From IMG/VR virus record IMGVR_UViG_2582580966_000005: 18,833 nucleotides of DNA; one strand, written 5' to 3'. The DNA comes from a virus (Duplodnaviria > Heunggongvirae > Uroviricota > Caudoviricetes). The notes below the pieces were generated by a model. The model did not search any database. It saw nothing but the letters and a program-made list of their open reading frames with translations, and was not told the origin of the DNA. The translations under genes and the position numbers were made by a program. Below are positions 15,398 to 18,833 of the stretch, piece after piece (the stretch's first letter is position 1; every line of letters starts with the position of its first letter).

Positions 15398-15940
15398 TTA
15401 TTCCTCCGTCAGCGCCACATATTCAGAATGTTTAATTTCCTGACATTCTTCAGGAATACGCCCGTTTATTTCCCTGCCATAAGCACCTACTTTAAACACC
15501 ACGCACAGGGCATCACGGGAGAGAGACGGGGTCCACCAGGAGTCTGTGTTAAACATGGAGGGCATTCTCATTACCCCCAGCTTTTCACAGAGCCAGACAA
15601 GGAAATCAGGTCGCTTTCTTAAATCGCGTTCAGCGGCTTCAACCATTGTGGCAATCGCCGGTCCTTCAGGGCATGACTCATCAGGTCTGGCTATAAAGCA
15701 CTGTCCGCTACCGATAAAAGCCACATCATCGCGCTTACGCCAGCCCGCAGGCAGAGCACCGGCAAAATAAAACTCACTGATTCTGTCCATGGCGAACGGC
15801 TTTAAGCGCAATCCGGCAGCGCCTGTATTTTTCAGTAACGTCCGAAGAATACTGTTGCGTAGCGGTAAAACAGTCTGTTGATATTTGGTGAAATATTTAT
15901 TTGTCTGTGCTCTGTCTAATTTGAAATAAAAATATGCCAT
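15398..15940 (-). CDS. Hypothetical protein (180 aa), variable early region
   Basis: ATG start with AAGGAACAGGA Shine-Dalgarno; first gene after a 97-bp gap downstream of gam; stop lies 3 nt from the next start. No family recognised. Confidence 0.5.
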   Translation of the reverse strand: MAYFYFKLDRAQTNKYFTKYQQTVLPLRNSILRTLLKNTGAAGLRLKPFAMDRISEFYFAGALPAGWRKRDDVAFIGSGQCFIARPDESCPEGPAIATMVEAAERDLRKRPDFLVWLCEKLGVMRMPSMFNTDSWWTPSLSRDALCVVFKVGAYGREINGRIPEECQEIKHSEYVALTEE

Positions 15941-16037: not shown

Positions 16038-16568
16038 TTATTTATTCAGTCCGGCGTCCTGTTCAAAAGGCTCGACAGAAAAACTTTCAGCGCCTTTATT
16101 CACCTTAATACCGGCAATACCCTTTACCGCATCCGGTTCCGCCAGAATGGCTTGCTTATTCACTTCCTCTTTCGTGCGGATGAAACGCTCAAGCCCCATA
16201 CGGCGCAGCATTTCAATCACACCTTCCACATCACGGCTGACGCTGCATGATGGCTTTTCCAGCCGCCATGACACCGTTCCGGTTGTCAGATTGGCAGTTT
16301 TGGTTTCGCCACCGTTCGTCAGCTCATCGCGGTTGGTTTTGCACCAGTCATGAATCCCCTTAAAAAGCACTTTGATTTCTTTTTTAAGGTTTTCAATCTG
16401 CGGCGTATAACGGGCGGTGATTTCTGCCACTTCATCATTCATTGCCGTTTCCAGGCGCAGCGCCTCTCGCTGCATATCCCCAAAGCGACGGATATCGCGA
16501 CTGACTTCTTCCCGGGTCTGCGGTGCCGCCTCGGCTGCGGCCTTTAATTTTGTAACGCGTTTAGCCAT
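16038..16568 (-). CDS. gam: Gam-like host-nuclease inhibitor (Mu Gam / Ku-like DNA end-binding family), 176 aa
   Basis: ATG start with AAGGA Shine-Dalgarno. Size and motifs (RLETAMNDEVAEI, RDELTNGGETKTANLTTGTVSWR, RFIRTKEEVNK) fit the Mu Gam family as I remember it; located between B and GemA as in Mu. Confidence 0.8.
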   Translation of the reverse strand: MAKRVTKLKAAAEAAPQTREEVSRDIRRFGDMQREALRLETAMNDEVAEITARYTPQIENLKKEIKVLFKGIHDWCKTNRDELTNGGETKTANLTTGTVSWRLEKPSCSVSRDVEGVIEMLRRMGLERFIRTKEEVNKQAILAEPDAVKGIAGIKVNKGAESFSVEPFEQDAGLNK

Positions 16569-16579
16569 TTTGTTTTTCC

Positions 16580-16873
16580 TTATTGCAGTGTGCCTGATGC
16601 TTTATGCACGCGGTGGCGTTTAATGATGGCATCCGCCCCAAAAGCCTGTACAGATGCCTGAAATTCCGCTGAGAGAAACTGAATAATTGCAGGACTGTGA
16701 TACTGGAGAATACTTGCATAAACGTCACAGAGTGACGTCGGGCTGTTATCCGTATCACGTTCTGTTTTCACATCCACTCCAATCTTTTCATGCACTTCAA
16801 CACAGTCATTGCCTGCCAACTTTTCGTCATGCGAAACATGATTAAATTCAAAAATAACGCGTACTTTGCTCAT
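16580..16873 (-). CDS. Hypothetical small protein (97 aa), second of a diverged tandem pair
   Basis: Track ORF starts at 16900, but the ATG at 16871..16873 has an AGGGG Shine-Dalgarno and gives the N-terminus MSKVRVIFEFNHVSH, parallel to the upstream paralog. Confidence 0.5.
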   Translation of the reverse strand: MSKVRVIFEFNHVSHDEKLAGNDCVEVHEKIGVDVKTERDTDNSPTSLCDVYASILQYHSPAIIQFLSAEFQASVQAFGADAIIKRHRVHKASGTLQ

Positions 16874-16877
16874 GGAA

Positions 16878-17150
16878 TTACCCCTGCTGATTAAATTCAT
16901 TACCTTTAATAACCCCGGAACGCATGCTCATATCTTTCATGAGCGCACTGGCTTTCATTGCCACAAGTTCAGCAAAGTCTCTGCTTTCCGCGAGCATAAC
17001 CACCCCAAAAATCATGGCGGGTCCATCACCTTTCTGCTTTATCCCGGTTGAACGTATGTCCAGACTTACCCCCATGCGCACTGTTCCATCAGGGTTTTTA
17101 TGGATAACGTGCTCCTTGTATTCGAAAATAATGCGTACGACTTTACTCAT
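16878..17150 (-). CDS. Hypothetical small protein (90 aa), first of a diverged tandem pair
   Basis: ATG at 17148..17150 with GAGGA Shine-Dalgarno. N-terminus MSKVVRIIFEYKEHV closely matches the next gene. Confidence 0.5.
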   Translation of the reverse strand: MSKVVRIIFEYKEHVIHKNPDGTVRMGVSLDIRSTGIKQKGDGPAMIFGVVMLAESRDFAELVAMKASALMKDMSMRSGVIKGNEFNQQG

Positions 17151-17428
17151 CCTCTGGTCCTCGTTCTGTTTGGATAACTGACCCGGCGTCTGACCTCACG
17201 GCAGAACCGAATCATGGCATTAAAGGCTTCTTCCTCCGTCACCGCTTCCGGTATCCCCGGAACCAGTAACTGCTCCTGTTCATCACGTCCATGACGCGCC
17301 ATAACCTCAATCACATGCCGTACCGTGGCAGGCTTTCCGGCAACTATCGGCAATGCACCTTCCGGCAGGACGTAACCAAACTCAATAAGACCACTCGACC
17401 ACGCCCATGCAATGAGATTTCGTTTCAC
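17147..17428 (-). CDS. Hypothetical small early protein (93 aa), GTG start
   Basis: GTG start at 17426..17428 (checked by hand) with GGGAGGTG Shine-Dalgarno; begins 1 nt after the upstream stop; its own stop overlaps the next ATG. Confidence 0.45.
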   Translation of the reverse strand: MKRNLIAWAWSSGLIEFGYVLPEGALPIVAGKPATVRHVIEVMARHGRDEQEQLLVPGIPEAVTEEEAFNAMIRFCREVRRRVSYPNRTRTRG

Positions 17429-17429
17429 C

Positions 17430-17696
17430 TCACACCTCCCAGTAAACCGTGCAGCCGCTGATGCGGGTGGCCTTCACACGGCGGCGCAGGCCGTTGGTCT
17501 GTATGGTGATTTCAATTTCACCGGTTCCCTGCACGTTGCCTACCGGCGGCGTGGTTTTCAGTGCAAAACGTTGCGGATAGCGCTTACTGCGTTCCAGTAC
17601 CGCACCGGCAAGTTCGGTCAGACGGCGCGCGCTGTTCAGGGAGTCGAATAAATTCATTTTGTTACCGCAGGATTGCATATTCATATAACACCTCAT
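17430..17696 (-). CDS. Hypothetical small early protein (84-88 aa; start uncertain)
   Basis: ATG at 17696 abuts the upstream stop with no Shine-Dalgarno; the in-frame ATG at 17684 is preceded by GAGGTG. Tight packing with neighbours on the same strand. Confidence 0.4.
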   Translation of the reverse strand: MRCYMNMQSCGNKMNLFDSLNSARRLTELAGAVLERSKRYPQRFALKTTPPVGNVQGTGEIEITIQTNGLRRRVKATRISGCTVYWEV

Positions 17697-17918
17697 TTAG
17701 CTGACTTGTTTCGCACCAACAGAACGGCATATTCCGCTGTAAACGTCTGTCGCACCTTTGCGATCAAGTCCGGCAGATATCACCATTCGTGTGCGGTCAT
17801 TAAATTCAAAAAGTAAATCGCCACATTCTTTATTTTCGGCCAGTGAAATCACCTTCACGTTATCGAAATTAACCAGGTAAAAGCGTCCGTAAATATCAGG
17901 AATATTAAATACCGCCAT
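17697..17918 (-). CDS. Small early protein in the position of Mu kil (about 73 aa); function not established
   Basis: Track ORF starts at a GTG at 17924; the ATG two codons in (17916..17918) has an AGGTG Shine-Dalgarno 5 nt upstream and overlaps the B stop codon. Assignment is by position and size only. Confidence 0.4.
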   Translation of the reverse strand: MAVFNIPDIYGRFYLVNFDNVKVISLAENKECGDLLFEFNDRTRMVISAGLDRKGATDVYSGICRSVGAKQVS

Positions 17919-17920
17919 AA

Positions 17921-18833
17921 TCACACCTGTGAGAGTAATTCAGGGTTGGTATAAACCTCTTTAAAGGCCGCATTAATATGTTTTTCTGTCAGCGCCGCGC
18001 CTTCACCGCTGGCGGTGAGCCACGCCTGGTTAAGCGTATGTGTCAGAACGCGTAACGCTCCCGGTTTTTCAGCGATAGCCTGCATGACGGCCAGCTCGGC
18101 CTCACCACTGATACCCCATGCCCTGGCAATGGCCAGCACATCCGCCTTTTTAGCCTTGCGAAGTTGTTTTGTACGGGCAAGACGACTGAACAGGCGCGAT
18201 AAGTCATCAACGGCGCGGCGTCCACCCTTAAACAGTCCGCGCGGGTTACCAATAAGCACCATCCCGATCCCCGTGGCGTCCTGGATTGCACGCAGTTGTT
18301 CCAGACCGTCAATACCCAGATGATCCGCCTCATCCACAATCACCAGTCCACGCGTTCCCGTCAGGCGACGGCGGATGGCGCGGGATAACGCCCCCTTGTT
18401 CGCGCGGGTGTAATCAATCCCCAGCGCATCGGCCAGCTCCAGCAGACCCTCCGTGACGCTGGAGTGCGCGGGTGACAGGGTGATCATCCAGGTGTTTGGT
18501 TGCTCCTGGCAGTAATTACGGGCGGTGGCCGTTTTACCCACACCCGGTACGCCCACAATGACGTTAATACAGCCCATCAGGCGAACCGCCTGAAACAGTG
18601 CGCGCAGCTCCTGGACTGTCTGCGTTTCCACAAACTGCGGCGGTTCCGGCAGTGCGCTTTGTTTATTCCAGTTCTCATACCAGGAACGCAGGGAAGCAGC
18701 CACAGCGGCGTTATCGCCTTTATATTTCCCCTTGCGGAAAGCCGATAATGTGCCGTCGAAAATCCCCGCCTCTCTGGCGATGGCATACTGCGTCAGTACG
18801 CCGCCATCAATAAGTTCATCAATGGTCTTGATT
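17921..18833 (-). CDS. B: MuB-like transposition ATPase (AAA+), partial: N-terminus lies beyond the window end
   Basis: Frame is open to the window edge. My translation of 18704..18832 gives IKTIDELIDGGVLTQYAIAREAGIFDGTLSAFRKGKYKGDNAAVAAS (HTH domain), followed by the Walker A motif GVPGVGKT and Walker B LVIVDEADHL in the track ORF. The M at 18703 in the track is an internal GTG. Stop at 17921 overlaps the next gene. Confidence 0.8.
   Translation of the reverse strand, partial: IKTIDELIDGGVLTQYAIAREAGIFDGTLSAFRKGKYKGDNAAVAASLRSWYENWNKQSALPEPPQFVETQTVQELRALFQAVRLMGCINVIVGVPGVGKTATARNYCQEQPNTWMITLSPAHSSVTEGLLELADALGIDYTRANKGALSRAIRRRLTGTRGLVIVDEADHLGIDGLEQLRAIQDATGIGMVLIGNPRGLFKGGRRAVDDLSRLFSRLARTKQLRKAKKADVLAIARAWGISGEAELAVMQAIAEKPGALRVLTHTLNQAWLTASGEGAALTEKHINAAFKEVYTNPELLSQV

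Follow-up and report, generated by a model that had tools for sequence, protein, structure and literature searches.

Two adjacent early genes of an Escherichia coli Mu-like prophage are probably diverged paralogues of one variable, uncharacterised family

Two small genes placed side by side upstream of gam in an Escherichia coli Mu-like prophage, designated here X1 and X2, are very probably diverged paralogues of a single family, as judged from sequence comparison. The explanation we favored, with a probability of about 0.6, is that both are real members of a family of early proteins of ~90–100 amino acids from enterobacterial Mu-like transposable prophages. One copy of the gene would usually lie between kil, followed or not by a PHROG-1518 gene, and either gam or a gene for a DUF3164 protein; in the E. 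coli lineage, a second and strongly diverged copy, X1, would be set directly before X2, which is of the conserved type, and each of them would be translated from its own ribosome-binding site. The pair may have originated through an in situ tandem duplication, or else through the unequal recombination of two Mu-like prophages bearing different alleles.

The window, i.e., the whole stretch of 18,833 nucleotides that was analyzed, corresponds to an E. coli Mu-like prophage; the region is 100% identical to E. coli AST198 and ~95% identical to a "Mu-like phage" insert in an Stx2c phage record. The genes all have the same orientation, on the minus strand, and follow the order B, a 75-amino-acid open reading frame (ORF), a Kil-like gene, a 93-amino-acid PHROG-1518 gene, X1, X2, and gam. 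The features of this region are as follows:

17921–18703, minus strand: B, with Phage-MuB_C and AAA_22 domains
17697–17924, minus strand: 75-amino-acid ORF after B
17430–17696, minus strand: Kil-like gene, PHROG 2679
17147–17428, minus strand: 93-amino-acid upstream gene, PHROG 1518
17158–17162, minus strand: Shine-Dalgarno sequence of X1, GAGGA, read directly from the sequence and ending 7 nt before the ATG
16878–17150, minus strand: X1, 90 amino acids, starting MSKVVRIIFEYKEHV..., PHROG 4107 (phrog_4107, E 4e-61), RefSeq CDS WP_000049435
16881–16885, minus strand: Shine-Dalgarno sequence of X2, AGGGG, ending 7 nt before the ATG, within the last codons of X1
16580–16873, minus strand: X2, 97 amino acids, starting MSKVRVIFEFNHVSH..., PHROG 2230 (phrog_2230, E 1.3e-38)
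16844–16873, minus strand: first 30 nt of X2, near-invariant in 23 alleles (pi 0.003 vs 0.1–0.27 in the rest of the gene)
16038–16568, minus strand: gam, the downstream neighbor of X2, Pfam PF07352 Phage_Mu_Gam (E 4e-40)
15398–15940: 180-amino-acid ORF located 3' of gam

The coordinates of X1 and X2 coincided with the RefSeq CDS calls in the identical E. coli record, where both are annotated as hypothetical proteins. The ATG of X1 overlaps the stop codon of the upstream PHROG-1518 gene (ATGA), the stop of X1 and the start of X2 are separated by 4 nt on the same strand, and X2 ends 11 nt before gam, X1 being one gene further upstream. The predicted product of X1 is basic (pI 9.45), and that of X2 mildly acidic (pI 6.0). 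The scanning of the coding (minus) strand from B to gam for promoter-like and terminator-like sites retrieved no match, and this is consistent with a single early polycistronic transcript. Some database entries of X1 (P0001 and P0013, 116 amino acids) carry 26 extra N-terminal residues (MKLLHGSALSSGQTPGQLS...). This extended form was rejected, since positions 17151–17228 of the window contain an in-frame TGA 15 codons 5' of the X1 ATG; with the frame closed in this way, the extra residues probably reflect misannotation in a subset of prophages.

The gene upstream of X1 showed variation of its own. In a presence/absence survey of related E. coli prophages, the PHROG-1518 gene (17147–17428) was variably present, and all that was left in the prophages without it was a segment corresponding to its last 22 codons, immediately 5' of X1. 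In Citrobacter and Klebsiella, homologues of 90–92 amino acids lie ahead of the one family gene present. PHROG 1518 carries the label "host nuclease inhibitor", which is the PHROG label alone, and the 93-amino-acid gene had no Pfam, NCBIfam, or PADLOC match.

The BLASTP comparison of X1 with X2 aligned the N-terminal 17 residues only (65% identity, E 0.004), and no significant direct match was found past residue 17. When the N-terminal 20-mers of all 32 minus-strand ORFs of the window were compared with each other, X1/X2 ranked at the top of the 496 pairs, with a score of 46 against 27 for the runner-up (z 10.6). The initial annotation had described adjacent genes with similar starts and a Shine-Dalgarno sequence each, and this was borne out, with translations as quoted there and matching RefSeq. 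With the direct match stopping at residue 17, paralogy is argued here from profiles and from an intermediate sequence. The alignment of the narrow X1 and X2 family alignments with hhalign gave a probability of 84% (E 8e-6, 42 columns), and that of the X1 family with the wider X2 family gave 85–91% (E 1.3e-6 to 5.9e-6), collinear over 77–80 columns. The real hhalign score was 37.8, and column-shuffled X1 alignments (n = 120) reached 10.6 ± 2.2, with a maximum of 18.9. After the N-terminal 16–17 residues were cut from both families, the score was still 19.1 vs a shuffle null of 9.6 ± 1.7 (maximum 15.3), and the alignment kept the register of the full one. An HMM built with 84 X2-family sequences recognized X1 with 17 bits over HMM positions 1–80 (single-test E 2.5e-7), and when it was run against all 259 six-frame segments of the window, X2 was found at E 2e-33, X1 at E 1e-4, and the next segment at 1.8.

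In plain BLASTP, residues 28–72 of X1 matched residues 31–75 of a Klebsiella-type member of the family (P0163) with E 3e-6, and this protein and two others (P0164 and P0141) each matched both phrog_2230 and phrog_4107. The PHROG 2230 model itself gave no hmmscan match with X1 at E values up to 10; the link between PHROG 2230 and PHROG 4107 comes from the profiles and intermediate sequences of this analysis, according to which the two groups can be merged into one family. Collectively, these comparisons argue strongly for X1 and X2 being diverged paralogues. The tandem paralogy proposed from the shared starts thus withstood the objection of a coincidental N-terminus, as similarity beyond the first residues persisted both in the truncated profiles (19.1 vs 9.6 ± 1.7) and in the match to the Klebsiella-type protein. 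The strong divergence proposed after about 15 residues held in the pairwise alignment and did not at the profile level, where ~80 columns were collinear.

The comparison of 14 family representatives with <70% mutual identity placed the lowest entropy at the first 11 positions, which form an N-terminal strand with the motif M-S-[N]-K-V-x-V-I-F-x-F. After position 11, conservation was periodic through the predicted helices (G-P, Y-A-x-I-L, P-x-I-I-x-F-L, E, G), and the most variable parts were the hairpin (~12–47) and the tail (~80–97). The N-terminal strand is therefore the slowest-evolving part of the family, and this explains why it is the sole similarity visible by eye after deep divergence. 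Across genera, the motif was kept as protein and not as DNA (MSKVRVIFEF vs MSNKVQVIFTFE). AlphaFold2 models generated from narrow alignments were of low confidence for both X1 (pLDDT 63; strands 3–18, 24–33, and 46–54, helix 57–78) and X2 (pLDDT 59; strands 4–20 and 24–39, helices 48–58 and 60–78). These low-confidence models have in common an N-terminal hairpin and a C-terminal helix, and they differ in the middle of the protein, where residues 46–54 of X1 are modeled as a strand vs a helix at residues 48–58 of X2, stretches that hhalign pairs together.

A word-based search for relatives retrieved 41 sequences for X1, none below 73% identity and, where named, always from E. coli, and 22 for X2, close ones only. 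An exhaustive HMM search with the X2 family reached members 25–30% identical (MSNKAQVIFTFE...), another profile search retrieved 159 proteins, distributed among Salmonella, Serratia, Klebsiella, and E. coli, and the profile search of genome contigs found one locus. The Salmonella, Serratia, and Klebsiella members matched PHROG 2230 at 1e-6 to 1e-24. By tblastn, X1 and X2 were detected among 50,697 phage records only in the Mu-like inserts of two Stx phages, and Mu itself gave no match; the plasmid search retrieved two E. coli records only.

The loci read outside E. coli were from Citrobacter braakii, several Salmonella, Klebsiella oxytoca, Serratia, and five more IMG/VR contigs. In these, a single family gene was found 8–9 nt before DUF3164 (Citrobacter, Salmonella, and Klebsiella) or Gam (Serratia), and 3' of kil, sometimes with a PHROG-1518-like gene between them; in Citrobacter and Klebsiella, the stop codon of this intervening gene overlaps the start of the family gene. 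No tandem pair of family genes was present in any of the non-E. coli loci read. The region was carried by 232 of 5,426 complete E. coli genomes, with up to four matching places per genome, and 226 of the 232 have both X1 and X2. We are highly confident that other lineages normally have one copy of the gene and that the tandem arrangement belongs to the E. coli lineage alone. X2 has retained the sequence type seen across the wider family, and X1 is the E. coli-restricted, strongly diverged copy. X1 was absent from strain CI5 and from one IMG/VR locus (L041), where the sequence upstream of X1 runs directly into a b-type X2.

Other arrangements were recorded at these loci. The loss of X1 was clean, with the usual X1-upstream sequence abutting the X2 start codon (L003, strain CI5, 2815–2888; L041), and one E. 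coli protein (P0036) was an in-frame deletion fusion of X1 residues 1–49 with X2 residues 79–97 at a shared "FG". The slot 3' of the family gene was occupied by Gam in E. coli and Serratia and by a 212-amino-acid DUF3164 protein in Salmonella, Citrobacter, and Klebsiella, with a spacing of 8–11 nt. This comparison, which set loci L086–L089 and L092–L099 against L091/L097 and positions 16038–16568 of the window, suggests that a single slot can be filled by either Gam or DUF3164.

The family gene diverged much faster than the flanking genes of the same genomes. In the same pairs of prophages from different genera or serovars, the family protein was 31–40% identical, Kil 77–94%, and DUF3164 81–96%, and the family split into >80 clusters at 90% identity, mostly from Salmonella. 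Within E. coli, 20 distinct prophages of the same architecture were compared, and X1 and X2 formed the peak of nucleotide diversity between kil and gam: values were 0–0.04 for kil and the PHROG-1518 gene, 0.02–0.15 for X1, 0–0.17 for X2, and 0.003–0.10 for gam. Troughs were found at the start of X1, the X1/X2 junction, and the X2/gam junction. X2 occurs as two allele classes ~60% identical, X1 alleles are 78–100% identical, and all the combinations were found. This pattern looks like variable cassettes exchanged through conserved junctions. The conservation at the near-invariant start of X2 extends to synonymous sites, as dS was 0.02 in codons 1–10 of 23 alleles that are otherwise 10–27% different. 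The junction observation spans this segment (16844–16873) and the 3' end of X1 (16874–16916), and the first 30 nt of X2 could be a conserved cassette junction, acting either as a recombination linker or as an RNA-level constraint on translation initiation.

Frameshifted or truncated alleles of the family were common (P0050, P0051, P0053, P0060, P0062, L044/L085, and L082, and the Salmonella-type L095, L096, L098, and L099), and thus, many of the resident prophage copies may be decaying, with sequencing errors as the cause in some cases. Early-region mosaicism extended well beyond X1 and X2. The 180-amino-acid gene (15398–15940) is substituted in several related prophages by a version only 23–24% identical, and its dN/dS of 0.35 is as high as that of X2, while the 75-amino-acid ORF (17697–17924) occurs as two allele classes, with about 73–85% and 95–100% identity.

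The analysis of selection, based on pairwise NG86 estimates of dN/dS from intact E. coli alleles, gene-wide or by region, gave values of 0.29 for X1 and 0.35 for X2. The other genes showed 0.11 (B), 0.21 (75-amino-acid ORF), 0.09 (kil), 0.12 (PHROG-1518 gene), 0.095 (gam), and 0.35 (180-amino-acid ORF downstream of gam). The ratio for X1 and X2 was thus about threefold that of gam, B, and kil, yet below 1, indicating that both are under purifying selection and are therefore real genes; the core early genes are under a constraint about three times stronger. By region, dN/dS was 0–0.05 in the N-terminal strand, 0.30–0.42 in the hairpin, 0.13–0.21 in the core, and 0.55–0.72 in the tail. The N-terminus of X1 showed normal synonymous divergence (dS 0.32) and a dN/dS of 0.05. 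No value above 1 was obtained by pairwise NG86, either gene-wide or regionally, the maximum being 0.72 in the X2 tail. The arms-race selection invoked in the initial annotation is thus matched by a divergence faster than that of the flanks, and not by dN/dS, which at 0.29 and 0.35 is elevated but below 1.

The scans of X1, X2, and distant family members against Pfam, NCBIfam, and PADLOC retrieved no match, and neither did PDB sequence searches with both family profiles; the neighboring genes, scanned against the same three libraries, offered no usable clue; Foldseek searches of BFVD gave best E values of 0.05–0.16, with no fold match. Across these five resources, no homology or fold match to a characterized anti-defence, defence, or nuclease-inhibitor protein was found, and the literature on the Mu semi-essential region, anti-defence in Mu-like phages, DUF3164, and the RefSeq accessions of X1 and X2 contained nothing on these proteins. 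The proposal that they inhibit host defence or host nucleases found no backing here, as the library and fold searches returned no function.

In Mu, the interval between kil and gam holds gp6–gp9 (formerly E5–E8), all annotated as hypothetical. Mu gp8 and gp9 were unrelated to X1 and X2, and no significant homologue of either was found in Mu itself, so the idea that this slot holds host-interaction genes in Mu was only loosely right. A link with Mu gp7 (E6, MAKVIIEIKN...) was suspected by eye and dropped, as the profile-profile, HMM, and BLASTP tests were non-significant (hhalign probability <1%, HMM 0.7 bits). Mu gp7 (PHROG 10252) resembles X1 and X2 in its length of 87 amino acids, its location in the early region, and its MAKV... 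start; it weakly matches PHROG 2230 over residues 1–78 (E 0.009), and its best Smith-Waterman z values (~4–4.7) were with Klebsiella-type intermediates, the same ones that bridge to X1. Unlike X2, it is not next to gam, as gp8 and gp9 lie between them. On these comparisons, the kinship of gp7 to the family is an unproven lead. The members of PHROG 2230, for their part, share with X2 an equal length, the N-terminal motif, and the position directly 5' of gam or DUF3164, whereas X1 is cataloged apart as PHROG 4107. Temperate phages have slots for variable accessory and anti-defence genes. X1 and X2 resemble these in being hypervariable small genes at a fixed position between conserved genes, with lineage-specific change in copy number and early expression, but they show no homology to any described anti-defence protein, and their dN/dS is below 1.

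Other explanations for the pair were weighed against duplication and divergence within one family. The shared N-terminus could be coincidental, or it could reflect only an element acting at the nucleotide level, e.g., a translation-initiation region or recombination junction, the two proteins being otherwise unrelated. The 17-residue limit of the pairwise BLASTP match, the invariance of the first 30 nt of X2 even at synonymous sites, the diversity troughs at the gene junctions, and the X1-less variants (CI5 and L041), in which the X1-upstream region joins straight to the X2 start, would all fit such an element. However, the similarity survived removal of the N-terminus, with X1 residues 28–72 matching the Klebsiella-type protein, the motif is conserved across genera as protein and not as DNA, and the X1 N-terminus combines a normal dS of 0.32 with a dN/dS of 0.05. 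As a complete explanation, unrelated proteins are largely refuted, and we consider this reading very improbable. A toxin-antitoxin-like or obligate heterodimeric pair, made of a basic X1 and an acidic X2, seems just as improbable. The two genes are indeed adjacent, co-oriented, and of ~90–100 amino acids, with products of opposite charge (pI 9.45 vs 6.0), but they are mutually homologous, one copy suffices for the family in all the other genera examined, some E. coli prophages have X2 without X1 (CI5 and L041), and neither a toxin or antitoxin domain nor a PADLOC match was found. The toxin-antitoxin interpretation was rejected because of the homology between X1 and X2 and the single-copy state of the gene elsewhere.

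The way in which the two copies came together is less settled. Unequal or illegitimate recombination between co-resident Mu-like prophages could have stacked two alleles that were already divergent, in place of a duplication followed by fast divergence; we see this as a possible route, with less than even chances. Alleles 31–40% identical coexist in one host genus between conserved flanks; outside the N-terminus, X1 is nearer to Klebsiella-type members (z 6.7–9.3, E 3e-6) than to its neighbor X2, which hints at this route; the allele types of X1 and X2 reassort freely, with conserved junction sequences between them; and the presence of up to four matching places in one E. coli genome indicates that such prophages co-reside. 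Set against this, no single-copy X1-type gene was found in other lineages by the word-based search, whose reach is limited, and in its N-terminus (MSKV..), X1 follows E. coli X2 and not the MSNKV type. With regard to the duplication followed by rapid divergence put forward in the initial annotation, paralogy is sustained and rapid divergence after duplication is not established, as the family is already hyperdiverse among prophages; the pair could equally come from recombination juxtaposing two already divergent alleles. It is also conceivable, and in our opinion unlikely, that the two genes are dispensable accessory ORFs undergoing drift and devoid of current function, whose variability reflects relaxed constraint and not selection exerted by an antagonist. 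A dN/dS about threefold that of gam, B, and kil, the many frameshifted, truncated, and fused alleles, and the existence of prophages without X1 would agree with drift, but the ratio is well below 1, falling to 0–0.21 in the N-terminal strand and core, and length, motif, and exact position are kept in at least five genera while the flanks swap between gam and DUF3164.

Under the favored explanation, i.e., real paralogues of one early-protein family, X1 and X2 would be small cytoplasmic proteins in which the N-terminal strand and amphipathic helices make up the conserved scaffold; the hairpin and the C-terminal tail, both variable, would be displayed on it and bind a variable partner. This partner would most likely be a host or competitor factor, e.g., a component of a defence system or a nuclease, and a second copy would broaden the range of partners. 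A fixed position in the early operon, extreme variability, a variable hairpin and tail, and the gain of a copy are the features expected of a protein whose target is a polymorphic factor of the host or of a competitor, and on this basis, we only tentatively propose the function of a scaffold with a variable binding face. More tentative still is the proposal that the gene 5' of gam or DUF3164 may be a previously unrecognized hypervariable specificity cassette that neutralizes a polymorphic component of host defence, a host nuclease, or a competitor phage, with two specialized copies in E. coli that would be swapped as modules through conserved junctions.

Most of the "semi-essential" early region of Mu-like phages is still without assigned function, and the merged family is the most variable gene of an otherwise conserved early operon in several enterobacterial genera. 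If the genes were inert, their variation would amount to ordinary accessory-gene turnover. The case is one of a variable, uncharacterised phage accessory family that has undergone paralogous expansion in one lineage; X1 and X2 are reasonable, though unproven, candidates for host-interaction factors, and the pattern nominates a small, cheap-to-test pair for host-takeover and anti-defence screens in the prophages of pathogenic E. coli and Salmonella.
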